A DNA stretch of 11,754 nucleotides, taken from IMG/VR virus record IMGVR_UViG_2671181100_000003, positions 1 through 11,754 of that record. One strand, given 5' to 3'. Position numbers and translations under genes: made by a program. This document shows, piece by piece, positions 1-11,754 of the stretch. The notes under the pieces are model-generated. The model did not search any database. It was not told the DNA's origin and saw only the letters and a program-made list of their open reading frames with translations. Each line of letters starts with the position of its first letter. The first letter of the stretch is position 1. The DNA is from a virus (taxonomy: Duplodnaviria; Heunggongvirae; Uroviricota; Caudoviricetes).

Positions 1-179
1 ACACGCCCTTCGTTCTGCCAGAGCCTGAGCCATTTGAAAATAACATTATCATTGACGCCATTTTCACGTGCAATCTGTGCAACACAAGCTCCAGGTTGTG
101 ATGCCAGTTCCACCATACGAAGTTTGAATTCATTCGAATAGTTTTTACGAGGTTCTTTTCGCCAGTCCTGTAATTCCAT
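1..179 (-). CDS. IS-type transposase OrfA-like HTH protein, N-terminal fragment (frame runs off the left window edge)
   Basis: Minus-strand ATG at 179-177 opens a frame that continues to position 1. Translation MELQDWRKEPRKNYSNEFKLRMVELASQPGACVAQIARENGVNDNVIFKWLRLWQNEGRV shows the OrfA-type helix-turn-helix pattern of IS3-family (IS2-like) or IS66-family transposases (EFK..V.....PG..V..IAR..GV......W.....EG). Absent from the ORF track because it is truncated by the window edge. A possible element terminus (minus-strand TGACCGCCG, plus 244-252) lies ~70 bp upstream of the ATG. Confidence 0.4.
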   Translation of the reverse strand, partial: MELQDWRKEPRKNYSNEFKLRMVELASQPGACVAQIARENGVNDNVIFKWLRLWQNEGR

Positions 180-193
180 ACTTAGATGTCCGT

Positions 194-430
194 CTATATC
201 AGATGGGCGTCTAAGTTACCAATTCTCGTCTGATGGCTACATACGGCGGTCAGTTTACGCTTACGTTCAGTTGACACTGGTATTACTTTGTTTTCCTGTG
301 CTGCACATTTAGCTTCAAGCGCATCGAATTTACGCACCAGGTATTCAGCATCTGTTTCATTTACTTTCAGATCTCGCGGTACACATCTCCCACGAAGAAA
401 CCCTTCCATTTCGAAAACATTCATGCGCAT
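194..430 (-). CDS. Small hypothetical protein (76-78 aa) downstream of yfdR-like gene; 3' end possibly altered by the adjacent IS-like element
   Basis: ORF-track frame. Its start overlaps the yfdR-like stop (ATGA at 421-424), suggesting translational coupling with the likely start at 424. No recognisable motif. If the IS-like element ends near 252, the last ~19 codons would be IS-derived. Confidence 0.35.
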   Translation of the reverse strand: MRMNVFEMEGFLRGRCVPRDLKVNETDAEYLVRKFDALEAKCAAQENKVIPVSTERKRKLTAVCSHQTRIGNLDAHLI

Positions 431-957
431 TTGCGTAACTCCGATAACTCGTTAAAGCGTTCCATAAACATCCCGTAGGCATGGCCCGGTGCCAGTGGAA
501 TCACGTTGAACATCTCTGTTGCCGGGATACCTTCCAGTACAGGCCAGAAAGAGCCATCATCAAGCCCGAGATCGCGGCGTTCGGTTGCCAGCATGATGAG
601 ATCGGCATATTTCACGGGCGTACTCATAACTGGGGGTAACCCGTATTTCTCACGGATTACGGCGTCTATTTTTTCTTCCATTTGTTTATAGTCAGGAAGA
701 AGGCGTTTCAGTGGTGCGGGAATGTCCTGGCAATACGCTTCTGTTGCATCATGCATTAACGCTTCAAAAGCAAATTCCTGCGGCACCAGCTGGCTGCAAA
801 GAACCGCATGTTGGGCGACGCTGTAGAAGTGCGAAAGATGACCGGCAAAGCGACAGATATTTGAAAGGGAAACCGCGATATCGTTAATATCGATGTCGTC
901 TTTATTTATCCTGTCATAATAAAAATGCTTCCCGGAAAAAGTTTTAATAAATGACAT
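421..957 (-). CDS. yfdR: HD-domain metal-dependent phosphohydrolase (YfdR-like, putative 5'-deoxynucleotidase)
   Basis: ORF-track frame 421..984 trimmed to the ATG at 957 (MSFIKTF...), which has GGAG ~6 nt upstream, giving 178 aa. HD signature residues are present (AQHAV and LMHDATEAY). Length and sequence match my recollection of the CPS-53 prophage protein YfdR. Confidence 0.75.
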   Translation of the reverse strand: MSFIKTFSGKHFYYDRINKDDIDINDIAVSLSNICRFAGHLSHFYSVAQHAVLCSQLVPQEFAFEALMHDATEAYCQDIPAPLKRLLPDYKQMEEKIDAVIREKYGLPPVMSTPVKYADLIMLATERRDLGLDDGSFWPVLEGIPATEMFNVIPLAPGHAYGMFMERFNELSELRKCA

Positions 958-1052
958 TTTGTTCTCCACGTATATGCGCTGCACCGCGCTGAATTCTGGT
1001 AAAAAGAATCCCTCACCATCCGGCGATTATTGAGTAAATTACGTTTCCATAA

Positions 1053-1070
1053 ATGCCCCCGCAGGGACAT
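1053..1070 (-). terminator. Weak hairpin between yfdQ-like and yfdR-like genes (possible attenuator or partial terminator)
   Basis: Imperfect inverted repeat ATGCCCC/GGGACAT with a 4-nt loop, followed on the minus strand by UUUAUGG. Not a canonical U-tract. Confidence 0.2.
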
Positions 1071-1084
1071 TTGCAGTAATGAAA

Positions 1085-1909
1085 TCAGGCGGTGAAAGTG
1101 CCAATAAAGGTTTCTACTTTGCTGTCCTTGAATTTCTCAACAAGCAGATCACGAAATTCGTTAGCCATTTCTTCCTGCACCGCCTCCAGCTGAATAATGC
1201 GCAGAACCAGTACAGGACGATCGCCAGTGATAATACTGAGGCGTAATTTAAACGGACGTTCTTTCAGACCTTCAAACGGAACGCATTTAAATTCAAATGC
1301 CACTGGCATAATGTCTTTGGTTTTCGCTTCGACAGACTCCATCAGAGAGCGTTTGCCGCTGAAGTCATTGTCTTCAAAATCAGCGGTCTGGTTTGCTTCA
1401 ATCGTGATTTTACGGACAGCCGCAGCCGCTTTTGTTGCCTGAATAGCGTCACCATTAGCATCAAAGCCCACAAGGTAGTCGGCCCAGTCTTCAATCCATT
1501 CTGCTAGTGACTTCTGGGAGTTACGCTCGCCGTTAACAGACAACAGAGCAGAGAACGGTGCTGTCTTTTTCAGTTTGAGTGTGGCGGTGTTATCTGCGTG
1601 ACCTGGTTCATCAATAGTACCTAGGTTAAGCACACTGACGGCACGCATATTATCAGCATCGATAAAGCAGCGGGTGCCTTCATCTGCAAGATCTTTAGAA
1701 TAACGGGTAAAATCATCGATGCTGGCAGTGGAAAGCGCACCACGGAAACGGAAGCGATTTAAATTAAATTTTTCCAGATCATGAATGCGGAAATTCTCAG
1801 GCAATGCCACAGCATCGGCACCAATCTTACTGATAATTTCATTAACACCCTGAGCAGAAATAAGGGCATGGATTTGATTAATTGCGGTTGCGTCTAAGTT
1901 CTGAGACAT
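1085..1909 (-). CDS. yfdQ: DUF2303-family phage early protein (YfdQ-like), function unknown
   Basis: 274-aa ORF with GAGGA 5 nt upstream of the ATG. Length and sequence ([21 protein letters not shown]...) match my recollection of YfdQ from prophage CPS-53. Confidence 0.75.
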
Positions 1910-1974
1910 AATAAGTCCTCACTATATAAAGATATTCAGTGATGAGATAAATAATCAGTTAATTAAAAACGATA

Positions 1975-2337
1975 TTAACGACCTGCTGCGCGGAGTTTTC
2001 CGTCAGGTTCACCGGCAAGAGTCAGCAACTGTCCCTGGTCTTCCTGCAGAATAGTCAGGCGACCACCGCGATTGACATACATCGGCGTTTCGGTGGTGTC
2101 TTCTTCGGAAATTTTCCCGCGGTTAGTCGGGCGAACATATGAGAGTTTGTGTTTGATTTTCACTCGGTTCTCATCAAACGGTTCGATTTCTAGGTTGAGC
2201 GAGACCTTACCTTTGGTTTTCGTGTTCATCACACCGGAAGCGACTTCACTGAGAACTGCGCCGATTTTGGTTTCAAATACGCCGCCGTCCAGCTCCCCGA
2301 TAAATGCCTGCACATCAGTACTGCGTTCGCTAGCCAT
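1975..2337 (-). CDS. yfdP: YfdP-like early protein (120 aa), function unknown
   Basis: ORF-track frame 1975..2655 trimmed to the internal ATG at 2337 (MASERSTDVQ...), which has GAGGAG ~7 nt upstream. The 106 upstream codons are P/G/R-rich read-through of GC-rich non-coding DNA. Confidence 0.65.
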   Translation of the reverse strand: MASERSTDVQAFIGELDGGVFETKIGAVLSEVASGVMNTKTKGKVSLNLEIEPFDENRVKIKHKLSYVRPTNRGKISEEDTTETPMYVNRGGRLTILQEDQGQLLTLAGEPDGKLRAAGR

Positions 2338-2385
2338 TTTGCTGCTCCTCATCATATCGACCCTGCAAGGTCGGTTAGTTTCTCC

Positions 2386-2666
2386 ACAAAACAGAGAAGA
2401 ACACCTGCGGTGACTGCCGCCCGGATGGATTGGGTTATGAGCCCGTCGTCCGGTGATGCTCTTCTCTGTTTTGTAAAAAGGACGGTACCAGCCGGAAGCA
2501 AGGGTACAAGCTGGTACCGCCAAGACTACACACAGCATAAAGTTGTGGTGCCGGGTGCCTCCCGGTGCCTGGCGAAGGTTGCACACCAGGCGGGTGGGTA
2601 TCCACAGAAGGTCGACTGTCAGCCTCAACCTTAACCCGCGTGCGCTGAGCCGCATTCACCACAACG
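2386..2666. other. GC-rich non-coding stretch with nested perfect inverted repeats (candidate structured leader RNA or regulatory element of the leftward early operon)
   Basis: Perfect inverted repeats: 15 bp (2386-2400 ACAAAACAGAGAAGA / 2460-2474), 10 bp (2483-2492 CGGTACCAGC / 2510-2519), 9 bp (2542-2550 GTTGTGGTG / 2657-2665), 7 bp (2575-2581 / 2627-2633), plus short GC hairpins at 2551-2565 and 2567-2591. ORFs open in several frames here encode P/G/R-rich, non-protein-like sequence. Confidence 0.3.
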
Positions 2667-2806
2667 CTAAGGATTCTCTCTGGTTGAAAATACTTAGCTG
2701 TTATGTGCCTGCTTTTAGCCACATCAGGCGAGGTGGACCTAGTTATTCCCCAACAACAAGGATTCGGTTAATCTGGATATCCCCAACAACAATAAGAGTA
2801 TTCAAT

Positions 2807-3322
2807 GTGATCGCTGAATTAACGGCAGCAATGACGGCTATTCGTGAAATCGCCCAGATTGCAAAACTAATGAACGAGGCAAAAACTCAAGCTGAAGTAA
2901 ATGCGGCTATTGGTGAGCTGAACTCAAAGCTTGCGTCTATTCAGCGCGAATGCGTGTCTCTCGTTGAACTGCTGGGCTCTTATCAAGAAATAAATGCTTC
3001 TCTCAAAGCTAAAATTGCAGAATTCGAAAACTTTGAGGCTCAGACGGAAGGCTATATCCTTAACCAACTTGAGTCGGGTACTTTTGTATACTCGAAGGAG
3101 GTAATCGTGAACGGTGACAGCATAACCATGCATCTTTGCCCAAAATGTTTTGGACAAAAGATAGTATCGATACTTCAACCATTCCCGGTTAGCGAAGATG
3201 AGCTTTTTCATAAAAGCAGGTGCCTCCACTGTGAAAATAAGTTTCTGATGAATAAAAATCCAGATTACGTATCGCCTCCATCCATTGAGGAGTTGGCCAG
3301 AAAACTTAACGGCAATCTGTAG
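2807..3322 (+). CDS. Coiled-coil protein with C-terminal CxxC...CxxC zinc-ribbon (accessory gene in the immunity region, function unknown)
   Basis: ORF-track frame 2543..3322 trimmed to GTG 2807 (AAGAG 8 nt upstream) or ATG 2831. The N-terminal ~80 aa are heptad-like and A/E/K/L-rich; the C-terminus carries CPKCF and CLHCENK ~24 aa apart. GC is ~42% against ~52-55% in the replication genes. Convergent with the repressor, own terminator downstream. Confidence 0.55.
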   Translation: MIAELTAAMTAIREIAQIAKLMNEAKTQAEVNAAIGELNSKLASIQRECVSLVELLGSYQEINASLKAKIAEFENFEAQTEGYILNQLESGTFVYSKEVIVNGDSITMHLCPKCFGQKIVSILQPFPVSEDELFHKSRCLHCENKFLMNKNPDYVSPPSIEELARKLNGNL

Positions 3323-3347
3323 ATTGCTACTGTTGTGGATATCCAGA

Positions 3348-3360
3348 TTGTTAAAGAGCG
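3348..3360 (-). promoter_or_regulatory. boxA-like element (minus-strand CGCTCTTTAACAA), candidate nut-type antitermination site
   Basis: Minus-strand 13-mer CGCTCTTTAACAA matches the boxA consensus (rrn boxA TGCTCTTTAACAA; lambda nut boxA CGCTCTTA...) as I recall it. It is flanked by hairpins at 3362-3378 and 3312-3327 and lies downstream of a candidate leftward promoter at 3468-3496. Confidence 0.35.
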
Positions 3361-3361
3361 A

Positions 3362-3384
3362 AGCGTCCTGTAGGGCGCTTTTTT
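3362..3384 (+). terminator. Rho-independent terminator of the coiled-coil/zinc-ribbon gene
   Basis: Stem AGCGTCC / GGGCGCT (7 bp, one G-U) with loop TGTA, followed by TTTTTT at 3379-3384, ~40 nt after the stop codon at 3320-3322. Confidence 0.5.
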
Positions 3385-3465
3385 GTTGCTAACGAATCAT
3401 CCTGGACTTCATATGCCCCAGGCGGCTACTTCGTGGGCGTCCTGCCTGTTCGTTATCTTTGATAT

Positions 3466-3553
3466 AAAATCTAACTTAACTTAGCTATTATGGCAAGAGA
3501 AAACACCAAACTTTTCTTAGTTCGGTGCCTTAGTTAGAGAAGAGAGGTCTTAG
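3466..3553 (-). promoter_or_regulatory. Candidate left operator/promoter (OL/PL-like): leftward promoter flanked by CTTAG half-sites
   Basis: On the minus strand: -35 TTGCCA (plus 3491-3496), 17-bp spacer, -10 TAGATT (plus 3468-3473). CTTAG occurs four times within 3480-3553 (3480, 3516, 3529, 3549), the same pentamer that forms the operators between the repressor and cro. Confidence 0.3.
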
Positions 3554-4176
3554 AGTTCGTATTGAACTCCTTTGACTACACCAATGATAAGGCAATTACC
3601 ATTGATAGGGATGTTGGGATACCGAGGATTTAATGGCACTAAAAACTTTTGAGGGCCATCGATGACTAATTTTTTTACTGTAGCTTCGTTTGTTCCATCA
3701 AGTCGAGCGATGACTATTTTTCCATGACGAGGTTCTGCATCTGGATCTACAATCACTGTTGCGCCTTCTGGTATTGTTGGGAGGCCATTAGGGTTAGTCA
3801 TGGAGTCACCTTTAACCTCTAATGCAAATGAGTTATCACCAACCTTTAATGATGTATCTACCCACTTGTCCACTTCACTAAACACTTCTGCTGCCCTGCA
3901 CTCAGTAAACTGCCCAGCCTGAACCCACGATATTACAGGAACTCTGCGCATGTTTGTGACGAGTTTGCCTTCAAACTCAGCACCATAAAGAATGTAATCT
4001 ATTGACGTATTGAAGAACTTCGCTAATTTCGAAAGTGCCTCCCCACCAGGGGTATTGATGTCTTTCTCCCAGTACCCCACAGCAACGTCGCTTACTCCAC
4101 AAAATTTACCCAATTCTTTCTGGGACGTTCTGGTAACTCTTCTCAGAGCTTTTATACGCTGACCAACCGTTTCCAT
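3550..4176 (-). CDS. Phage repressor, cI/LexA-type (N-terminal HTH + C-terminal S24 autopeptidase domain)
   Basis: 208 aa. N-terminal HTH (QKELGKFCGVSDVAVGYWEKD), candidate Ala-Gly cleavage site (VQAGQF), S24 catalytic motif GDSM and Lys in TVKKL. Divergent from a cro-like gene across an operator region. Confidence 0.9.
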   Translation of the reverse strand: METVGQRIKALRRVTRTSQKELGKFCGVSDVAVGYWEKDINTPGGEALSKLAKFFNTSIDYILYGAEFEGKLVTNMRRVPVISWVQAGQFTECRAAEVFSEVDKWVDTSLKVGDNSFALEVKGDSMTNPNGLPTIPEGATVIVDPDAEPRHGKIVIARLDGTNEATVKKLVIDGPQKFLVPLNPRYPNIPINGNCLIIGVVKGVQYEL

Positions 4177-4195
4177 AGGAGCACCATTTCTTTAA

Positions 4196-4266
4196 TTGCT
4201 AAGTAATCTTAGTTTTTATTGACCAAAGATAGATTTGTAATTAGCATCTAACAAAACTTAGTTTGG
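4196..4266. promoter_or_regulatory. OR-like operator/promoter region between repressor and cro
   Basis: Inverted half-sites CTAAG-TAAT-CTTAG (4199-4212), perfect palindrome AAACTTAGTTT (4254-4264), CTTAGTTT repeated at 4208 and 4257. Rightward promoter candidate -35 TTGACC (4219-4224), 17-bp spacer, -10 TAGCAT (4242-4247), upstream of the cro ATG at 4274. Confidence 0.5.
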
Positions 4267-4273
4267 AGAGCGT

Positions 4274-4474
4274 ATGACAACTGACGATATCGAAAGCTAC
4301 TTCGGCAGTATTGAGAAAGTTGCTGCTTTTTTCGGCATAACAACTGAAGCCGTTTATCAGTGGCGAAACCGTCCGGGCCAGTTAATTCCAAAAGGACGTG
4401 CAGCAGAAGCTGCATATAGAACTTGCGGACGGTTGCCATTTAAACCTGAGCTTTATGAAAAATCTAATGGATAA
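4274..4474 (+). CDS. cro: Cro-type repressor (P22 Cro-like)
   Basis: 66 aa; DIESYFGSIEKVAAFFGITTEAVYQW resembles P22 Cro (DVIDHFGTQRAVAKALGISDAAVSQW). Divergent from the repressor; GGAGAG upstream. Confidence 0.8.
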   Translation: MTTDDIESYFGSIEKVAAFFGITTEAVYQWRNRPGQLIPKGRAAEAAYRTCGRLPFKPELYEKSNG

Positions 4475-5063
4475 ATCGATTAACAGAAACCACAGAACGA
4501 TGAGGCTAACCGTGGGTAAGCATCACTGGAAAGTAGAAAAACAGCCTGAGTGGTACGTGAAAGCTGTCAGAAAAACTATCGCAGCGTTGCCGGGTGGTTA
4601 CGCTGAAGCTGCTGACTGGCTGGATGTAACAGAGAACGCATTATTTAACCGCCTTCGTGCCGATGGCGATCAGATTTTCCCGCTGGGATGGGCAATGATT
4701 TTGCAACGTGCTGGTGGAACTCACTTCATTGCTGACGCTGTGGCGCAGTCTGCAAATGGCGTCTTTGTGTCTCTTCCTGATGTCGAGGATGTGGACAACG
4801 CCGATATCAACCAACGCCTGCTGGAAGTCATTGAACAGATCGGCAGTTATTCAAAACAGATTCGTTCAGCAATTGAAGACGGTGTAGTGGAACCGCATGA
4901 GAAGACAGCAATTAACGATGAGCTGTACCTCTCAATTTCGAAGCTGCAGGAGCATGCAGCACTGGTCTACAAAATCTTTTGCGTTTCAGAAAGTAGTGAC
5001 GCCCGCGAGTGTGCAGCTCCGGGCGCCGTGGCGTGTCGTGACTGTGGAGAAACTAACGCATGA
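4455..5063 (+). CDS. CII-position early regulatory protein (CII/CP76-like by position; start uncertain)
   Basis: ORF-track frame 4398..5063. The GTG at 4398 has no usable SD spacing and overlaps cro by 77 nt; ATG 4455 or ATG 4467 (overlapping the cro stop) are likelier starts. About 200 aa, first gene after cro. Family assignment is by position and vague recollection only. Confidence 0.45.
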
Positions 5064-5398
5064 ACAGTTTAACAACACACTACCGTCGCTCGCAACTGAT
5101 TGCGCTTCCTGTACCGGGTGGAAAAGCGAAGGTGGAGTATTGCTATGCAGTAAATGTACCAGGTGACAGGGAAATTGTAACCCACAGCTTTGCAGAGTGG
5201 GCTGTGGGTGATTTCAACCGGCAGAAGGAGACAGTCCTTTGCGACAAGTTAACCGCTGGTTCAAAGATCACTACGGAGTGCCCGTCAGAGTCATTCGTTG
5301 GGAGCCGGAAACACAACGTGTTATCTACCTCCGCGAAGGCTATGAGCATGAGTGCTTCAGCCCGCTCGAACAGTTTCGTCGTAAATTCAGGGAAATAG
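5060..5398 (+). CDS. Hypothetical protein (112 aa as called); only the N-terminal ~55 aa look protein-like, possible frameshifted or overlapping gene
   Basis: ATGA overlap with the preceding stop (5060-5063). The N-terminal part ([52 protein letters not shown]) looks coding; the C-terminal ~50 aa are S/A-rich low complexity and overlap a better-looking frame (see 5239..5418). Confidence 0.3.
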
Positions 5399-5418
5399 AG
5401 GTCGGTCATGAGCACTAA
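5239..5418 (+). CDS. Small hypothetical protein (59 aa) from a TTG start; alternatively the C-terminal half of a frameshifted gene starting at 5060
   Basis: Not in the ORF track (no ATG). AAGGAG at 5225-5230, 8 nt before TTG 5239. Translation [59 protein letters not shown] is compositionally protein-like. Stop at 5416-5418 overlaps the O-like start. Confidence 0.3.
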
Positions 5419-6364
5419 ATTAACCGGCTATGTATGGGATGGTTGCGCTGCATCAGGCATGAAATTATCCAGCGTGGCAATTATGGCCCGCCTGGCTGAT
5501 TTCAGTAATGACGAAGGTGTGTGCTGGCCATCAATTGAAACCATTGCCCGCCAGATTGGCGCGGGGATGAGTACCGTCAGAACGGCTATCGCACGGCTGG
5601 AAGCAGAAGGCTGGTTAACGCGTAGGGCGCGTCGCCAGGGTAACCGCAATGCGTCGAATGTTTATCAGCTTAACGTTGCGAAGCTTCAGGCAGCGGCATT
5701 TTCTCAACTGTCAGATTCTGACCCGTCAAAATCTGACGCATCAAAATCTGACGCATCAAAATCTGACCCGTCAAAATTTGATGCGTCGAAATCTGGCAAA
5801 AAAGCGGGTTTTCACCCGTCAGAATCTGGTGGGGATCCGTCAGTAAAATCAAAACATGATCCGTCAGATAAAAAAACTTCTCGTCCGGACGCTTCGCAAC
5901 CGGACACGCAGACGGCTGAACAGGATTTTTTAACTCGCCATCCTGATGCGGTTGTATTCAGCCCTAAAAAGCGCCAGTGGGGGACGCAGGATGATTTGAC
6001 CTGCGCACAGTGGCTCTGGAAAAAAATCATCGCCCTGTACGAGCATGCCGCCGAATGTGACGGCGAGGTGGTTCGTCCCAAAGAACCGAACTGGACAGCC
6101 TGGGCAAACGAAATTCGCCTGATGTGTGTGCAGGATGGTCGTACTCATAAACAAATCTGCGAGATGTACAGCCGCGTCAGTCGCGATCCGTTCTGGTGCC
6201 GTAACGTGCTCAGCCCGTCGAAGCTGCGGGAAAAATGGGATGAGCTTTCCCTGCGCTTATCGCCGTCCGTCAGCACGTACACCGAAAAACGCGAAGACCC
6301 GTACTTCAAAGCCAGTTACGACAACGTGGACTACAGCCAGATCCCGGCAGGATTCAGGGGGTGA
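5408..6364 (+). CDS. Replication initiator, lambda O-like (N-terminal HTH DNA-binding domain, repeat linker, C-terminal domain)
   Basis: 318 aa, GAGGT 5 nt upstream. N-terminal HTH (SSVAIMARLADFSNDEGVCWPSIETIARQIGAGMSTVRTAIARLEAEGWL) is typical of phage replication initiators. An internal tandem-repeat block encodes (S/P)KSDA pentapeptides, like the iteron-encoded linker of lambda O. Position after cro/CII. Confidence 0.7.
   Translation: MSTKLTGYVWDGCAASGMKLSSVAIMARLADFSNDEGVCWPSIETIARQIGAGMSTVRTAIARLEAEGWLTRRARRQGNRNASNVYQLNVAKLQAAAFSQLSDSDPSKSDASKSDASKSDPSKFDASKSGKKAGFHPSESGGDPSVKSKHDPSDKKTSRPDASQPDTQTAEQDFLTRHPDAVVFSPKKRQWGTQDDLTCAQWLWKKIIALYEHAAECDGEVVRPKEPNWTAWANEIRLMCVQDGRTHKQICEMYSRVSRDPFWCRNVLSPSKLREKWDELSLRLSPSVSTYTEKREDPYFKASYDNVDYSQIPAGFRG
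5711..5800. repeat. Six tandem 15-bp repeats inside the O-like gene: candidate replication-origin iterons
   Basis: Units TCAGATTCTGACCCG / TCAAAATCTGACGCA (x2) / TCAAAATCTGACCCG / TCAAAATTTGATGCG / TCGAAATCTGGCAAA. Each junction forms the dyad CGTCA-AAATC-TGACG. Degenerate copies and an A-rich stretch follow to ~5880. Confidence 0.5.
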
Positions 6365-6366
6365 TC

Positions 6367-6855
6367 ATGAGTCTTTTGAATGACGTTCAGAAATTCATTG
6401 AAGCCCATCCGGGGTGTACTTCCGGAGACATTGCGGATGCTTTTGCAGGTTACTCACGACAGCGCGTTCTGCAGTCAGCAAGCAAGTTACGTCAGAGTGG
6501 GCGTGTGGCTCACCGTTGTGAAGGGGATACACGCAGACATTTCCCGCGGCTGACTGAGATACCGCAGGAGCCGGAACCGCAACCAGTTCGTGAATCCAGA
6601 CCTGTGCGCAATTTCTATGTCGGCACTAACGATCCCCGGGTGATTTTGTGCCTGACCCGCCAGGCGGAAGAACTGGAGTCCAGGGGCTTATACCGTCGTG
6701 CTGCAACGGTGTGGATGGCGGCATTCCGTGAAAGCCACTCCCAGCAAGAGCGAAACAATTTTCTTGCGCGTCGTGAGCGGTGTTTACGGAAAAGCAGCAA
6801 GCGCGCTGTATCGGGTGAAGAGTGGTATCTGTCAGGGAATTACGTGGGGGCTTAA
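6367..6855 (+). CDS. Putative transcriptional regulator: N-terminal winged-helix-like region plus PerC-like C-terminal motif
   Basis: ORF-track frame 6361..6855 trimmed to ATG 6367 (GGGGG 5 nt upstream, overlapping the O-like stop). The C-terminal motif AEELESRGLYRRAATVWMAAF resembles the PerC/Pch activator signature as I recall it. The size (162-164 aa) matches my recollection of YfdN. Confidence 0.55.
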   Translation: MSLLNDVQKFIEAHPGCTSGDIADAFAGYSRQRVLQSASKLRQSGRVAHRCEGDTRRHFPRLTEIPQEPEPQPVRESRPVRNFYVGTNDPRVILCLTRQAEELESRGLYRRAATVWMAAFRESHSQQERNNFLARRERCLRKSSKRAVSGEEWYLSGNYVGA

Positions 6856-7181
6856 TGACGACGTTAACTCAATGCCAGCAGCAGGTGCTGGATATGCTGA
6901 TTTCTTATCAGAAAGAACGTGGCTTCCCGCCAACCAATCAGGAGGTGGCAACCATGCTGGGATACCGTTCAGTGAATGCAGCGGTGGAGCATCTTCGCGC
7001 ACTGGAGAAAAAAGGCGTCATCACGATAAAGCGTGGCGTGGCCCGGGGCATCACGCTTCATACCGCGGTGAAGGACGACGACAGCGAGGCGGCCGGGATT
7101 ATCCGCGCACTGCTTGCTGGTGAGGAAAACGCCAGGCTGCGTGCAGCCCACTGGTTACATGAGAGGGGCCTGAAAGTATGA
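6855..7181 (+). CDS. LexA DNA-binding-domain-like protein lacking the S24 peptidase domain
   Basis: ORF-track frame trimmed to ATG 6855 (TAATG overlap with the upstream stop; GGGGG upstream). LTQCQQQVLDMLISYQKERGFPPTNQEVATMLGYRSVNAAVEHLRALEKKGVITIKRGVARGITL aligns by eye with the LexA N-terminus ([65 protein letters not shown]). The 108-aa product stops before any protease domain. Confidence 0.75.
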   Translation: MTTLTQCQQQVLDMLISYQKERGFPPTNQEVATMLGYRSVNAAVEHLRALEKKGVITIKRGVARGITLHTAVKDDDSEAAGIIRALLAGEENARLRAAHWLHERGLKV

Positions 7182-7567
7182 AGCTGATCCTGCCTTTTCC
7201 GCCCAGCGTGAACACGCACTGGCGACACCCCAACAAAGGGGCGTTTGCTGGTAAGAGCCTGATAAGCGCGGCGGGGCGAAAATTCCAGAGCGCGGCGTGC
7301 GCAGCAATAGTTGAGCAGTTACGTCGTCTGCCAAAACCAACGTCGGCACCTGCTTCAGTGGAGATCGTGTTGTTTCCTCCGGATAACCGGATCCGCGATC
7401 TGGACAACTATAACAAGGCGCTGTTTGACGCCCTGACCCACGCGGGTGTGTGGGAAGACGACAGTCAGGTGAAAAGAATGCTGGTGGAGTGGGGACCGGT
7501 TATCCCGGAAGGGAAGGTCGAGATCACTATCAGTAAGTACGAGAAACCGGCGGGTGCAGCCGCCTGA
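7178..7567 (+). CDS. rusA: RusA-family Holliday junction resolvase
   Basis: 129 aa with ATGA overlap to the upstream gene. Motifs LPFPPSVN, DLDNYNKALFDALT and GVWEDDSQV match the RusA family. Confidence 0.85.
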   Translation: MKLILPFPPSVNTHWRHPNKGAFAGKSLISAAGRKFQSAACAAIVEQLRRLPKPTSAPASVEIVLFPPDNRIRDLDNYNKALFDALTHAGVWEDDSQVKRMLVEWGPVIPEGKVEITISKYEKPAGAAA

Positions 7568-7586
7568 TTAAGAGGAGAAACGAAGT

Positions 7587-8384
7587 ATGAATAATCTGAT
7601 GGTTATTGATGGTATTGAAGTTCGTCGTGATGCTTATGGGCGTTACAGCCTGAACGATCTGCACAGGGCTGCCGGTTCTCTGGATAAACATAAGCCTGCA
7701 TTCTGGCTCCGCAATGAGCAAACTGAACGTTTAATAAGCGAGTTGCAGATTTGCAACTCGGTCAATATAGAGCCAGTTAACGTTATTCGTGGAGGAAATA
7801 ACCAGGGGACGTATGTCTGCAAAGAACTGGTGTATGCCTATGCAATGTGGATCAGCCCGTCATTCCATCTGAAGGTGATCCGTACTTTCGATATGGTAAC
7901 CAGCACACCGGAAAAATTATCCGGGCAGGCTGCTGACAAGATGCAGGCTGGCGTGATCCTGCTGGACTTTATGCGCCGGGAGTTAAACCTGTCTAACTCT
8001 TCAGTGCTTGGTGCCTGTCAGAAACTCCAGGAGGCTGTTGGCTTACCGAATCTGGCACCGCGCTATGCCATTGATGCTCCTGCTGACGCGCCTGATGGCT
8101 CAAGCCGCCCCACGCTGTCACTGAGTGCACTGCTGAAGCAGTATGGTATCCGCCTGACAGCTAATCAGGCATATCACCAGATGGTGAAGCTGGGGATCGT
8201 CGAGCAGCGCGAACGATACAGCCGTACCGCGATTAACAACATCAAAAAATTCTGGTCACTGACAGCGAAAGGCTGCATGTTCGGCAAGAACATCACCAGT
8301 CCCGCAAATCCGCGCGAGACGCAGCCGCATTTCTTCGAATCCCGATTCCCTGAGCTGTTAAAGCTGCTCGATACCGTTCATTGA
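7587..8384 (+). CDS. KilA-N domain protein (N-terminal KilA-N DNA-binding domain, uncharacterised C-terminal domain)
   Basis: 265 aa with strong RBS AAGAGGAGAAA. N-terminal YSLNDLHRAAG...KPAFWLRNEQTERLI...IRGGNNQGTYVCKELVYAYAMWISPSFHLKVIRTFD fits the KilA-N fold. Confidence 0.8.
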   Translation: MNNLMVIDGIEVRRDAYGRYSLNDLHRAAGSLDKHKPAFWLRNEQTERLISELQICNSVNIEPVNVIRGGNNQGTYVCKELVYAYAMWISPSFHLKVIRTFDMVTSTPEKLSGQAADKMQAGVILLDFMRRELNLSNSSVLGACQKLQEAVGLPNLAPRYAIDAPADAPDGSSRPTLSLSALLKQYGIRLTANQAYHQMVKLGIVEQRERYSRTAINNIKKFWSLTAKGCMFGKNITSPANPRETQPHFFESRFPELLKLLDTVH

Positions 8385-8385
8385 G

Positions 8386-9381
8386 GTGACCGTGAGAGCG
8401 CTACTGACCCCTGAAATTGCCCCGCGTATGGGGATCGTATTGTTCAGGCCAGGTTCAGAGCTGATGCCCCTGTTTATGCAGGGCCGTGTTCTGCTGGAGC
8501 CTGAGCCGGAGCGTTATTCATCTTTCGCCAGTGGTGCCGTTCCTGCGGCATCACAACCGCTGGCGGATGATCCTGCCGTTCTGGCCGTGTTCCGTAATGA
8601 GGCAGTGATTCGTCGTGCTGGTGGGGTGGAATGTCTTGAAAGCTGGTTACTTCGTGAAAAAGGCTGCCAGTGGCCTCATTCCGACTGGCACAGCGAGAAC
8701 ATGACCACAATGCGACACGCGCCGGGCGCAATCCGTCTGTGCTGGCACTGCGATAACCAGCTTCGCGATCAGTTCACGGAACGGCTGGAATCAATGGCAA
8801 CGGATAACTGTGCCCGCTGGGTGTTGTCTGTTGTGCGTCGGGATCTCGGTTTTGATGATAGTCACGTTGTGACAATGCCGGAACTGTGCTGGTGGCTGAT
8901 TCGTAATGATCTGGCAGATGCCTTACCGGAAAGTGCAGCCCGTAAGGCACTGAGATTACCGAAGCCTGTTGTGCCGTCTGTCACCCGGGAAAGTGACCTT
9001 GTGCCTTCGGTTCCTGCCACCAGCATCATCCAGGATAAGGCGAAAAAGGTGCTGGCGCTGAAAGTGGATCCGGAGTCGCCGGAGTCTTTTATGTTACGCC
9101 CAAAACGCCGCCGCTGGGTTAATGAAAAGTACACGCGCTGGGTTAAGACACAGCCGTGTGCATGTTGTGGAAAGCCTGCTGATGATCCCCACCACCTGAT
9201 AGGTCACGGTCAGGGTGGAATGGGTACAAAAGCGCATGACCTCTTTGTGTTGCCTTTGTGCAGAAAGCATCACGACGAGCTGCATGCGGATACCGTGGCA
9301 TTTGAAGAGAAGTATGGCTCCCAACTGGAGCTGATATTTCGTTTTATCGATCGCGCGCTGGCGATTGGTGTGTTGGCCTGA
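8386..9381 (+). CDS. DUF968-like nin-region protein with C-terminal Cys/His-rich (HNH-like) motif
   Basis: 331 aa from GTG 8386 (start uncertain; internal ATG at 8428). C-terminal CACCGKPADDPHHLIGHG...LCRKHHDELH suggests a zinc-binding nuclease-like motif. Family assignment from memory of YdfU-like prophage proteins. Confidence 0.55.
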   Translation: MTVRALLTPEIAPRMGIVLFRPGSELMPLFMQGRVLLEPEPERYSSFASGAVPAASQPLADDPAVLAVFRNEAVIRRAGGVECLESWLLREKGCQWPHSDWHSENMTTMRHAPGAIRLCWHCDNQLRDQFTERLESMATDNCARWVLSVVRRDLGFDDSHVVTMPELCWWLIRNDLADALPESAARKALRLPKPVVPSVTRESDLVPSVPATSIIQDKAKKVLALKVDPESPESFMLRPKRRRWVNEKYTRWVKTQPCACCGKPADDPHHLIGHGQGGMGTKAHDLFVLPLCRKHHDELHADTVAFEEKYGSQLELIFRFIDRALAIGVLA

Positions 9382-9398
9382 TTTGGTGGAGAAAGTTG

Positions 9399-9764
9399 AT
9401 GCGTGATATTCAGATGGTTCTGGAGCGTTGGGGAGCATGGGCGGCGAGTGATAGTTCTGGAGTAGACTATTCGCCTATAGCTGCTGGGTTTAAGGGGCTT
9501 CTTCCCTACACAAGCAAAACACGTCAGGCTTGTTCAGATAGTGATGCATTAATTATTGAAGGTTGTCTTGCTCGTCTAAAGCAAAAAAAGCCAGATGAGC
9601 ACTCGCTGCTTGTGGCACATTATTTATACAGAATATCCAAGCGTAAGATTGCAAAGGTGCGTGGAAAGGATGAAAAATTGGTACGCATAGAAATACAACT
9701 AGCCGAAGGATTTATTGATGGTTGCCTTTCAATGTTGGATGTTAACCTTGAAATGGACGCTTAG
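9399..9764 (+). CDS. Late-gene antiterminator Q (small Q family)
   Basis: ORF-track frame 9396..9764 trimmed to ATG 9399 (GGAG 7 nt upstream). The N-terminal motif DIQMVLERWGAWAA...DYSPIAAGFKGLLP matches my recollection of the small antitermination-Q family. Last gene of the rightward early operon. Confidence 0.7.
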   Translation: MRDIQMVLERWGAWAASDSSGVDYSPIAAGFKGLLPYTSKTRQACSDSDALIIEGCLARLKQKKPDEHSLLVAHYLYRISKRKIAKVRGKDEKLVRIEIQLAEGFIDGCLSMLDVNLEMDA

Positions 9765-9770
9765 GGTTGC

Positions 9771-9800
9771 ACAGGTTGGCCCCATATGAGGCCAACCTGT
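9771..9800. other. Perfect 11-bp inverted repeat (hairpin) between convergent Q and membrane-protein genes
   Basis: ACAGGTTGGCC (9771-9781) / GGCCAACCTGT (9790-9800) with an 8-nt loop. It starts 7 nt after the Q stop and abuts the membrane-protein stop codon (9800-9802). No adjacent U-tract on either strand, so not a canonical intrinsic terminator. Confidence 0.4.
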
Positions 9801-10261
9801 CACAAGTGGGGGAAGATTTTTCGTAACACTAACCAACACCTTCCGAAGGTATATAGCGAAATTATAAGGGAGGATAAGCCTAACAGTATGAATAGGAAAT
9901 CAATAGGTTTGCCCGCAACAATAACATCATCTGGTAGAAACATCGCTATCAATGGAAATATACATGCGACGATGAGAGTTAACCCTGTTGAAAGTAATCG
10001 ATTTACCAGAGTTGGTAACACGTTGTTTTGCTTAAGGGCATTAATTGCTCCTTCCTTATCGCTGTTTGCACTACTAAATATAGATATTGCAGCCAGAACA
10101 AAACCAAACAGGATGCCTGATATAGTCGAGAGCACCCCCGCTGTTGTGAGTACGTCAGCATGCTTCATCGGTTTAAACAGTTTTGTCGCTGCATAGGTCA
10201 ACAGAATCCAGAGGACGCATTTCCAGAGAAAAGTGGCTAATTCTCTCATTGTGTCCTCCAT
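9800..10261 (-). CDS. Small integral membrane protein, four predicted TM helices (second gene of the two-gene cassette)
   Basis: 153-aa ORF; the likely start is the second ATG at 10249 (GGAGG 5 nt upstream), giving 149 aa. Four hydrophobic segments (~residues 10-28, 37-63, 85-109, 120-140) with short loops and no soluble domain. Separated by ~20 nt from the upstream 313-aa gene. Confidence 0.6.
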   Translation of the reverse strand: MEDTMRELATFLWKCVLWILLTYAATKLFKPMKHADVLTTAGVLSTISGILFGFVLAAISIFSSANSDKEGAINALKQNNVLPTLVNRLLSTGLTLIVACIFPLIAMFLPDDVIVAGKPIDFLFILLGLSSLIISLYTFGRCWLVLRKIFPHL

Positions 10262-10270
10262 GCTTGGTTA

Positions 10271-11212
10271 TTAGTCTCTGCTAGCGAGCTCATACTGTGC
10301 AAGATAGTTCGCGTTATCAATTTTAGCAGATATCATCGCCGTTCTGATATCAGAATCGGATGGATAACCGCTTTTGACAATGATTGTCTTTGTACTGACC
10401 AATACTTGGTCAAGTAGACTTTTGGGCGTTCTATTGGATGGCTCTGTTACATCAATTTTTTTAATTTTTAGACCTCCAGAACCTTTTGGAAAAAGTTCAA
10501 GTAGTTCCTTAATAGCATCGGTGACAGAAGTTTTTAGATAGTTAAAACCTTGTTTTTTCGGGCGAATCCGACCTCGCATATTTAATCTTAGATGCGACCC
10601 GCCCATACCAACAACCATGTCAATAATTTCATTAGCTAAAGGGTTTTTAATCTTATAATTAGCTTTGTTAAAGTTTCTTGGAGCAGCAACTATAAGATCG
10701 AAACTACGTAGGATATTTCCGTCCTCAAGCAGTTCCTTCATGCTCTCTTGTTTCCAAATGGCTTCAAAAGTGACGCTTTTTAAATCAGTTTTGTTATACA
10801 AAATGAATGCCAGATCATTTACTTTGGGCCCTATATGGTTGAGGGTCATAGCTAATAAATCCGTTTCGTAGTAATAGATAAAATATGTTCTTTCAACTAC
10901 AGAATCTTTATCATTTAAAGGAATTGTTCTCTCACTACCTGTAGCATCCTCGATGAACGGTAGTAGGCATTCCCTTCTCCACGATACGTAACCAAAGTAA
11001 CATTGCAGTGTGGTATCTTTTTGAAGAATAACTAACTTTAACCCTCGATTTGGGGTGTCTGTTGTGTAAGTTATTGGAAAAGTTACAGTATCTGCTGTGG
11101 TCATTTGCTCAAAGGCTAGTTTTGCAGCAGATGTGCCATCTTTTTTGCTTCCATTACCAGTGAAAAAACCAACTCTCACTCGCCTAGTTTTATTCTTATT
11201 TTCTGTACTCAT
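10271..11212 (-). CDS. Uncharacterised 313-aa soluble protein (first gene of the two-gene cassette)
   Basis: Long ORF with no recognisable catalytic motif by eye (no Walker A, no clear nucleotidyltransferase GS...DxD). K/N/T-rich, GC ~35-42%. Opposite in orientation to all flanking phage genes. Confidence 0.65.
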   Translation of the reverse strand: MSTENKNKTRRVRVGFFTGNGSKKDGTSAAKLAFEQMTTADTVTFPITYTTDTPNRGLKLVILQKDTTLQCYFGYVSWRRECLLPFIEDATGSERTIPLNDKDSVVERTYFIYYYETDLLAMTLNHIGPKVNDLAFILYNKTDLKSVTFEAIWKQESMKELLEDGNILRSFDLIVAAPRNFNKANYKIKNPLANEIIDMVVGMGGSHLRLNMRGRIRPKKQGFNYLKTSVTDAIKELLELFPKGSGGLKIKKIDVTEPSNRTPKSLLDQVLVSTKTIIVKSGYPSDSDIRTAMISAKIDNANYLAQYELASRD

Positions 11213-11227
11213 TATCGATCCGAAATA

Positions 11228-11257
11228 ATTTTAGCAACCGTGTGAAAAATACAACAA
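11228..11257 (-). promoter_or_regulatory. Candidate promoter of the two-gene cassette
   Basis: Minus-strand -10 TAAAAT (plus 11228-11233) with -35 TTGTTG (plus 11252-11257, 18-bp spacer) or TTGTAT (15-bp spacer). Leader to the ATG would be under 15 nt and the RBS is weak, so confidence is low. Confidence 0.2.
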
Positions 11258-11334
11258 AAAAAAGAGGAAATCATTAGCGCGGTCCGCAAAAAACATTGTA
11301 ATCTGTTAAGAGTGGTTACTTCGCCACACAACTT

Positions 11335-11359
11335 AAACCCGCCGCTGAGCGGTTTTTTT
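11335..11359 (+). terminator. Hairpin plus T7 tract (intrinsic terminator-like) on the plus strand upstream of the small ORF at 11481
   Basis: AAACCCGCCGCTGAGCGGTTTTTTT: stem CCGC/GCGG (extendable with a bulge) then seven T. Would terminate plus-strand transcripts that have crossed the cassette antisense; could be a tR'-like site. Confidence 0.35.
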
Positions 11360-11409
11360 GTACCTGTAAACCTGGTGCAGTACAGTAAACACGCTGGTGG
11401 TCGTGAATA

Positions 11410-11436
11410 CTGGCTTTTTATCTTGCTGGCTTTTTA
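11410..11436. repeat. Direct repeat CTGGCTTTTTA x2 (16-bp period) upstream of the 11481 ORF
   Basis: Exact 11-bp copies at 11410-11420 and 11426-11436; candidate regulator binding sites or part of a late promoter/qut region. Confidence 0.3.
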
Positions 11437-11480
11437 GACAAGAGTTATTGGTATGTCATGTTAACCAGAAGGGAAAAAAC

Positions 11481-11684
11481 ATGCTAAAACAGCAAGATAT
11501 GACAGAAACCGCCGCCGCAGTCCTTCATTTCTTACCTGCTGACAAGTGGGTAACGCCACGCATGATGACGAGAACTACCGGAGTAAGCGAAGCCCGGTGC
11601 CAGTTAATACTGACTCAGTTAGTTCTGGCGGGTCTGGCGAAGGATAACGGCGGGTACGGGAATAAATTCAGACGCTGCCAGTAA
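11481..11684 (+). CDS. Small hypothetical protein (67 aa), possibly winged-helix DNA-binding
   Basis: ORF-track frame 11397..11684 trimmed to ATG 11481 (AAGGGA 6 nt upstream). Translation MLKQQDMTETAAAVLHFLPADKWVTPRMMTRTTGVSEARCQLILTQLVLAGLAKDNGG looks like a small winged-helix regulator. Confidence 0.45.
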   Translation: MLKQQDMTETAAAVLHFLPADKWVTPRMMTRTTGVSEARCQLILTQLVLAGLAKDNGGYGNKFRRCQ

Positions 11685-11754
11685 TGGCGGTTTCCTGCTG
11701 TGAAAATGGGCGGCTGGTGGGTGTTGGTAGCACCTGCCAGCCATTCGCTCATGC
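11684..11754 (+). CDS. Possible start of a further gene (partial, runs off the right edge)
   Basis: ATG at 11684 overlaps the preceding stop (TAATG); the frame stays open to the window end (MAVSCCENGRLVGVGSTCQPFAH...). Too short to judge. Confidence 0.2.
   Translation, partial: MAVSCCENGRLVGVGSTCQPFAH

Follow-up and report, generated by a model that had tools for sequence, protein, structure and literature searches.

Which function does a lambdoid prophage place in a single small gene beside its repressor, and how might it keep that function in check? We addressed this question in an 11,754-nucleotide (nt) stretch of viral DNA (Caudoviricetes; IMG/VR record IMGVR_UViG_2671181100_000003, positions 1 to 11,754), referred to here as the window, whose numbering is used throughout. 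The window is the early region of an SfV/CPS-53-like lambdoid prophage with an integration site that adjoins a tRNA-Thr gene, downstream of proA, and the chromosome of E. coli strain 1283 is 100% identical to it. The gene in question lies on the plus strand at 2807-3322, and its product is labelled 'hypothetical protein' in RefSeq (WP_000559916.1). A first-pass annotation, made from the sequence, had proposed an exclusion or defence function of the rexAB or sieB kind from the position of the gene next to the repressor. We find that the product almost certainly belongs to the Rip1 (ring interacting pore 1) family of prophage defence proteins, and that the gene is preceded by a leader homologous to that of sieB in lambda and P22.

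The gene product and the Rip1 family

The gene and the two parts of its product are as follows (aa, amino acids; dN/dS, ratio of nonsynonymous to synonymous substitution rates).

2807 to 3322, plus strand: rip1-like gene, 171 aa, GTG start (phrog_1244, E=2e-59; profile match to PDB entry 9oox; Foldseek probability 1.00; dN/dS 0.13-0.31).
2810 to 3043, plus strand: N-terminal helical, amphipathic region, residues 2-79 (AlphaFold2 helices and hydrophobic moment).
3056 to 3256, plus strand: C-terminal beta-rich domain with a four-cysteine zinc ribbon and an ILQ motif (Cys codons at 3137, 3146, 3221 and 3230).

Searches of Pfam, NCBIfam and PADLOC with the protein gave only sub-threshold coiled-coil or zinc-ribbon noise. 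Because the PADLOC release dates from 2023, before Rip1, its miss is uninformative. In PHROGs, the protein falls into phrog_1244 ('unknown function'), and Rip1 of phage HK446 (E=2e-53), HkaP of HK620 and gp30 of JBD30 score as strongly against that family as the window protein does. None of the Pfam, PHROGs, PADLOC and NCBIfam searches revealed homology to a core phage function. The approximately 120 homologues in a large protein collection are all 'hypothetical' and all from Enterobacterales.

The homology and structure search suggested in the first-pass annotation led to Rip1 by profile, by single sequence and by predicted structure. A profile of 37 homologues matched 9oox, the cryo-electron microscopy structure of 'ring interacting pore 1 (Rip1)' of phage HK446 with the T6 small terminase, at E=8.3e-20 over residues 5-151, which is nearly full length. 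The window sequence alone matched the same entry at E=6e-7 and approximately 27% identity, with both CxxC motifs in register. In the AlphaFold2 model (predicted local distance difference test score, 91.5), helices at residues 2-23 and 28-79 are followed by a beta-rich domain. Foldseek matched this model to chains L and M of 9oox (E=7e-7 and 1e-6; probability 1.00), with template modelling scores against chain M of 0.55 (query) and 0.71 (target); it gave no further credible match, the next-ranked having E=0.1.

The zinc ribbon recognised at the outset, CxxC-x24-CxxC at the C terminus, corresponds to C111, C114, C139 and C142. These four residues are invariant across the 37 homologues and align to LCAQCY...RCHRCN of HK446 Rip1. 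In a joint alignment of the window protein with HK446 Rip1, HkaP of HK620, JBD30 gp30 and three enterobacterial homologues, the four cysteines and I122-L123-Q124 are invariant, and Q46, L66, Y83, V94 and Y95 are also the same in the window, HK446, HK620 and JBD30 proteins. The ribbon can now be placed in the C-terminal half of Rip1, which contacts the terminase ring in the solved complex. The N-terminal part, first described as a coiled coil, is indeed made of two long predicted helices, but these correspond to the amphipathic N-terminal helices of Rip1. Their hydrophobic moment peaks at 0.52 at residues 8-25, and the mean moment over residues 1-80 was equalled in 10 of 500 shuffled sequences. 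As in HK446 Rip1, no transmembrane segment was found in this region (maximum 19-residue Kyte-Doolittle average in the window protein, 1.05).

A profile search of 1.84 billion representative proteins recovered 2,778 relatives at E≤1e-3. Because only 20 of these reach E≤1e-30, the window gene belongs to a small enterobacterial branch of a large family. It is an unannotated addition to the known Rip1 family rather than a new type of system.

The open reading frame and its boundaries

The plus-strand gene ending at 3322 had been given two possible starts, GTG at 2807 and ATG at 2831. We assign the start to GTG 2807, because homologues begin with MIAEL... at the equivalent codon and a Shine-Dalgarno sequence, AAGAG, lies at 2794-2798. 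Values of dN/dS were 0.13-0.31 in comparisons with homologues of 51-93% amino-acid identity; purifying selection acts on this open reading frame (ORF).

The low GC (guanine plus cytosine) content of approximately 42% in the earlier description is correct for the ORF (42.6%; window, 47.8%). The ORF is AT-rich, however, only relative to its flanks (2338-2806 and 4274-9764, approximately 52%). Because the adjacent repressor gene has 43.2% GC, the low value marks the whole immunity-proximal region and not the rip1-like gene alone. The intrinsic terminator placed at 3362-3384 was also recovered, at slightly wider limits, and is the top terminator-like site of the region.

3360 to 3387, plus strand: intrinsic terminator of the rip1-like transcript, with a nine-pair stem (3360-3381), a 4-nt loop and a T-run (terminator scan).

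A sieB-type leader precedes the gene

Approximately 105 nt before the start codon are conserved ahead of Rip1-like genes in which the synonymous sites of the ORF have reached saturation. In one example, identity is 90% in the leader and 64% in the ORF, which has approximately two substitutions per synonymous site (dS ~2). The features of this leader are given below.

2704 to 2812, plus strand: sieB-type promoter/leader, the reverse complement of which corresponds to the P22 sas antisense RNA (covariance model).
2707 to 2736: hairpin, GCCTG (2707-2711) pairing with CAGGC (2725-2729); the loop CCAC (2719-2722) is complementary to GTGG (2733-2736).
2747 to 2759, plus strand: direct repeat copy 1 (TCCCCAACAACAA), in the loop of a second, covarying hairpin.
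2769 to 2774, plus strand: putative -10 hexamer TAATCT, between the repeat copies (column conservation).
2780 to 2792, plus strand: direct repeat copy 2, abutting the Shine-Dalgarno sequence.

The leader is identical at 63 of 90 positions to the reverse complement of P22 sas (29 of 34 in the hairpin core; sas sequence from PMC13397905, Table 2), and at 62 of 90 to the lambda sieB leader. When a covariance model was trained solely on leaders of lambda, P22 and the HK620 type, with the clade of the window left out, it found one full-length match in the window, at 2704-2812 (53.2 bits, E ~1e-11; runner-up, 11.5 bits). The distance from hairpin start to start codon, approximately 100 nt, is that of lambda and P22. 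The hairpin at 2707-2736 occurs once in the window and was matched in 0 of 200 shuffles; its P22 counterpart is close to the 3' end of sas. The first hairpin is invariant among the loci because its pattern was used to retrieve them; one compensatory change (CCGC/GCGG) is seen in Edwardsiella.

The 13-nt direct repeat reported upstream of the gene is real. Its second copy is where it had been placed, at 2780-2792, and its first copy begins one base further to the right, at 2747-2759 instead of 2746-2758. The repeat is not due to chance, because both copies are conserved in homologous leaders. Across leaders, the copies (CCCC(A/T)ACA...) are spaced 33-34 nt apart, and both switch in step from one lineage to another: the window has CCCCAACAAC, lambda, P22 and HK446 have CCCCTACAG, and Edwardsiella has CCCCAACAGC. 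The stem of the second hairpin is TTCTCG/CGAGAA in lambda and P22 and TTCCTG/CAGGAA or ATCCT/AGGAT in window-type leaders, so that two pairs are altered on both sides between lineages; the counts of covariation in the leader are modest.

The column of the putative -10 hexamer reads TAAAAT in HK620, TAAACT in lambda and P22, and TATAAT in two further loci (L100 and L187), with the T and A invariant. From this hexamer, the messenger RNA would start near 2781. Ranade and Poteete, in 1993, reportedly placed the sieB promoter in the leader region too.

A second copy of the element in the window, as for nutL and nutR, was not found by pattern or covariance model. A literature search by sequence string returned unrelated primer matches only. 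We had considered an antiterminator like put of HK022 and rejected it, as the element is absent from the early-left region of HK022 and proved to be the leader of the sieB/sas type. CsrA-type GGA sites were dropped because HK446-type leaders lack GGA, and a paper on Fc02 exclusion genes concerns different genes.

Position of the gene in the PL transcription unit

The first-pass annotation had placed the gene between the leftward early operon and the repressor. The gene is beside the repressor, but not outside the leftward operon, as the following features indicate (PL, leftward early promoter; OL and OR, left and right operators).

3468 to 3520, minus strand: PL-like promoter and OL operators, with -35 TTGCCA (3496-3491), 17 nt, and -10 TAGATT (3473-3468) (promoter scan).
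3471 to 3484 and 3507 to 3520: OL operator palindromes, CTAAG-N4-CTTAG.
3391 to 3454, minus strand: conserved 64-bp segment directly downstream of PL, 96-100% identical in SfV, SfII, SfIV and 569R4.
3331 to 3349, minus strand: inverted partial leader copy (AATCTGGATATCCaCAACA), forming a 19-nt inverted repeat with 2770-2788 with one mismatch.

In the window, CTAAG-N4-CTTAG occurs only at OL and at OR (4199-4212 and 4248-4261), and comparison with SfV-like phages shows that immunity-specific DNA begins at 3455. The palindromes, the minus-strand promoter and this boundary together place PL and OL between the rip1-like gene and cI. With PL and OL on its right, the gene is inside the leftward early unit, in antisense orientation and at the end nearest the promoter. 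The same arrangement is found for lambda sieB, a plus-strand gene that adjoins the 3' end of N, and for rip1 or hkaP of HK446, HK620 and HK630. A Klebsiella homologue (49% identical) has the same place beside an S24 repressor, an Edwardsiella homologue (44% identical) lies between the recombination genes and N, and the JBD30 homologue is antisense between terminase genes. The layout of a single gene on the opposite strand is thus common to HK446, HK620, HK630, JBD30 and the Klebsiella and Edwardsiella prophages.

That the gene is a single-gene insert, as first suggested, is borne out by where homology breaks in related phages. Compared with SfIV and 569R4, homology extends to 2790 and begins again at 3343; only the ORF is exchanged, here for a 144-aa phrog_5286 protein and a convergent 68-aa ORF, and the terminator is common to these phages although a different ORF precedes it. 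Compared with SfV, SfII and mEp460_4F5, homology extends to 2736, right after GGTGG, and resumes at 3391. The rip1-like gene is therefore a single-ORF cassette with its own leader and terminator in an SfV-like prophage.

The 19-nt inverted repeat (2770-2788/3331-3349) flanks the ORF exactly, and 0 of 20 shuffles gave one. The corresponding inverted copy in 569R4 extends into a Shine-Dalgarno sequence and the ATG start of the 68-aa ORF on the minus strand, which indicates that the slot can accommodate a convergent pair of cargo genes, both preceded by a leader of their own. No ORF lies behind the inverted copy in the window, and we take 3331-3349, from its sequence, to be the remnant of a second leader. 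In 569R4 (L008, 2007-2670) and SfIV (L009), the 144-aa protein (plus strand) and the 68-aa protein (phrog_1744, minus strand) each have a leader of their own, in inverted orientation.

Several observations concern the surroundings of the slot. The 64-bp segment at 3391-3454 has variable flanks on both sides, holds a CAGGC...GCCTG hairpin and could be a leader or an antitermination site; there is no N-like gene between PL and the slot. In the Edwardsiella prophage (L015, CP094321.1), which also has a Rip1-like gene, a gene with a GmrSD_N domain and its neighbour lie between N and the repressor (8105-9785), which suggests that the PL-proximal region collects defence genes.

A probable ring-triggered defence and its control

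The biology of Rip1 is taken here from section 5 of a review (PMC13434031), which cites Patel et al. 2026, Nature 651:1060. According to that section, Rip1 is a single prophage-encoded protein that is non-toxic alone. In Pseudomonas phages, the mutations that permit escape lie in the portal; in E. coli phages, they lie in the small terminase. An 11-mer small terminase is encircled by twelve copies of Rip1. The N-terminal part is an amphipathic helix, the ring is contacted through the C-terminal half, and the assembly acts as a pore that causes premature lysis (PMC13434031). The passages on Rip1 in PMC13601566 and PMC12908700 mention it in passing.

By analogy, the rip1-like gene is probably a single-protein abortive-infection defence, a pore triggered by phage rings. 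Homology and a shared fold with Rip1 support this proposal, so that the support comes from homology and not from experiment. The protein alone would be harmless, like characterised Rip1. During superinfection, the C-terminal zinc-ribbon domain would bind round a ring that the incoming phage forms from an assembly protein (small terminase or portal), approximately 12 copies of the Rip1-like protein would oligomerise, and their N-terminal amphipathic helices would form a membrane pore. The infected cell would die or lyse before progeny are completed. The exclusion or defence function first proposed from position is in this way supported by Rip1 homology and by the sieB-type leader upstream, with expression and phenotype taken by analogy.

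The window protein resembles the Rip1 proteins of HK446 and of Pseudomonas aeruginosa Mu-like prophages (JBD30 gp30-type) in its family (phrog_1244), its length (164-171 aa), its architecture (amphipathic helices at the N terminus, then a beta domain with four cysteines and ILQ at the C terminus), its predicted fold, which fits the solved chain, and its coding by a single gene opposite in strand to the surrounding phage operon. The leader is shared with HK446 rip1 (HK446_037). It differs from these proteins in its 27-30% identity and its separate, small Enterobacterales clade. The window gene is directly downstream of PL, with no N gene between, and convergent with cI, whereas HK446 rip1 is between cIII and N and the Pseudomonas gene is between terminase genes and has no leader. 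HK620 HkaP, annotated by Clark et al. 2001 as a 'putative superinfection exclusion protein', likewise belongs to phrog_1244 and has the same leader and opposite-strand placement, but it is 28% identical and located between cIII and hkaQ/N.

RexAB of lambda is a membrane-acting, prophage-expressed abortive-infection system next to cI. The likeness to the window gene is limited to function and position; RexAB is encoded by two genes co-transcribed with cI and has no sequence or structural relation to the window protein.

The leader suggests a way in which the gene could be controlled. In P22, sas pairs with sieB messenger RNA and shifts translation away from SieB (PMC12197685, PMC7067206). In the lysogen, the rip1-like gene would be transcribed from a weak sieB-type promoter, with its -10 at 2769-2774. 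Because PL lies upstream on the minus strand, transcription from PL would cross both gene and leader. Derepression of PL, by induction or by a superinfecting phage with the same leader, would then yield a sas-like antisense RNA that covers the Shine-Dalgarno sequence and start codon, and Rip1 synthesis would be switched off as for P22 sieB. We are evenly divided on whether the gene is controlled in this manner, an argument by analogy with sieB and sas. The window and the lambda and P22 sieB loci share a homologous leader, in which a hairpin and two loop repeats are followed by a Shine-Dalgarno sequence equally far from the start codon, and the same slot and orientation, antisense inside the PL operon. 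They differ in the protein, SieB being unrelated to the window protein, in the repeat, which has changed in concert, and in that the window ORF has no evident Esc-like internal start.

Some of our results weigh against these proposals. Identity to characterised Rip1 proteins is low enough (27-30%) that the trigger, and even the effector activity, could differ from those of Rip1. The family alignment shows no conservation of the internal Met9, Met22 and Met108 and no conserved Esc-like start, so the sieB/esc logic of P22 may not transfer. In addition, no strong sigma-70 promoter emerged from consensus scans of the sequence upstream of the gene, and the -35 of the proposed promoter is poor.

Alternative explanations

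The low identity also leaves some room for a Rip1 fold with a diverged role, in which the protein would bind the terminase or portal rings of its own phage (in packaging or lysis timing) or sequester ring proteins without forming a pore. This would fit with the small Enterobacterales branch (20 of 2,778 family representatives at E≤1e-30) and with the net charge of -4 over residues 1-80. The N-terminal helices of HK446 Rip1, however, are just as amphipathic and acidic (also -4), the window protein retains the full-length architecture and all family-invariant residues, and the gene occupies the same moron slot behind the same leader as HK446 rip1. We therefore consider a diverged role unlikely. 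Exclusion by a SieB-like activity, a poorly understood shut-off of macromolecular synthesis in mid-infection, would follow from position and leader only: both are those of lambda and P22 sieB, and hkaP of HK620 carries its exclusion annotation. The protein itself argues otherwise. BLASTP against lambda SieB gave E=0.012 over 39 residues, which is not a SieB similarity; SieB proteins belong to phrog_1301 and phrog_6399, not phrog_1244; and P22-type SieB has a hydrophobic N-terminal segment that the window protein lacks. A SieB-like activity thus seems very improbable.

Zinc ribbons are common among DNA- and RNA-binding proteins, and a PHROG recombinase family and an SbcC-like family weakly match the coiled coil (E=0.007-0.2), as might be expected of a nucleic-acid-binding regulator such as an early-left recombination or replication accessory factor. 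These matches span the coiled coil only, though, and the strong full-length match is to Rip1. The gene is opposite in strand to the early operon and has its own terminator, and sister phages fill the slot with unrelated genes, which argues that it is not a core function; we give a regulator hardly any weight. It is even harder to regard the gene as a decaying, non-functional moron remnant. There is no ORF behind the inverted leader copy and some database entries are truncated, but most short entries are source-labelled 'partial', several on contigs under 1 kb, and the intact 171-aa ORF is present in 645 genomes at 90-100% identity, with dN/dS values that are low throughout (0.13-0.31). The reading that we prefer is the ring-triggered pore defence of Rip1.

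The leader in other phages

The core pattern of the hairpin was found in at least 120 IMG/VR contigs. In 64 of the 80 contigs that were read, an ORF lies on the same strand at a fixed offset (61-65 or 94-98 nt), and the ORFs behind the leader in these 80 contigs form at least 22 unrelated clusters. They include P22-type SieB (phrog_1301), lambda SieB, three divergent Rip1-like clades and many small proteins of unknown function.

These findings raise the possibility, which we put forward tentatively and regard as rather doubtful, that the sieB/sas-type leader is a portable adaptor with which lambdoid phages plug in prophage-expressed, self-silencing defence genes. Such an adaptor would drive low expression in the lysogen, and PL transcription of the same DNA would make an antisense RNA that turns the cargo off during lytic growth of the phage itself or of a relative that has a leader of the same type. 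If so, the concerted repeats (CCCCAACAAC, CCCCTACAG and CCCCAACAGC) would sort leader and antisense pairs into specificity groups, the unknown cargo families (at least 15) would be candidate new defence genes, and a superinfecting phage could disarm a resident Rip1 by carrying the matching leader.

Two loci illustrate the range of cargo. In IMG/VR 2675903675_000003 (L184), a 136-aa protein with a coiled coil and CxxC...CxxC (phrog_1244, E=3e-22) begins approximately 96 nt after the leader core; it represents a third, shorter Rip1-like clade behind the same leader. SfV (L003, U82619.2) has an unannotated 81-aa ORF (3477-3722, plus strand; phrog_3311) behind a short sieB-type leader. This ORF overlaps the annotated orf33 by 84 nt, and an annotated minus-strand 'putative rho-independent terminator' (L003 3456-3488) overlaps the sequence that separates the first hairpin of the leader from the start codon of the ORF.

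Other features of the window

The order of genes in the window is as follows:

Minus strand: integrase, yfdT, yfdR, yfdQ and yfdP.
After yfdP: the rip1-like gene (plus strand), an LexA/S24-type repressor gene (minus strand), then cro, ymfL, replication genes, rusA and a gene for a Q-like antiterminator.

Directly left of the sieB-type leader, inside the PL transcription unit, starts an Rfam match to STnc100 (RF02076; 2472-2695, minus strand; 43.4 bits against a gathering score of 47, E=8e-7), a prophage small-RNA family related to PasD in a 2026 preprint. A RefSeq pseudogene labelled 'frameshifted hypothetical protein' (2352-2662) overlaps this match and may be non-coding. Right after the gene for the Q-like antiterminator, and on the strand opposite to it, lies a two-gene module of low GC content (9800-11212, minus strand; 35-42%). 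Its products have 313 aa (phrog_7651; no Pfam match) and 153 aa (phrog_8552; a weak, sub-threshold DUF4064 match), and neither has a PADLOC match; the module may be a further moron or defence candidate. Within a replication-initiator-like gene (5408-6364), a 15-nt unit (TCTGACCCGTCAAAA) is repeated 5.3 times in tandem (5717-5795). The array encodes a peptide repeat of the (S/P)K(S/F)DA type, probably represents origin iterons, and is the source of spurious Rfam mir-5880 matches.

Distribution and significance

Of 5,426 complete E. coli genomes, 650 contain the ORF (90-100% identity), O157:H7 included, always on the chromosome and always as a 'hypothetical protein'. Approximately one in eight complete E. 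coli genomes thus carries a gene for which the link to Rip1 gives a testable function and mechanism, which is relevant for phage host range and for phage therapy.

Less expected is that Rip1 genes, including that of HK446 for which the structure is solved, share the classical sieB/sas leader, and that unrelated small ORFs in large number follow this leader elsewhere. This sharing suggests how a prophage may avoid triggering its own abortive-infection pore at induction, and the conserved leader may serve as a sequence beacon for further small prophage defence genes.

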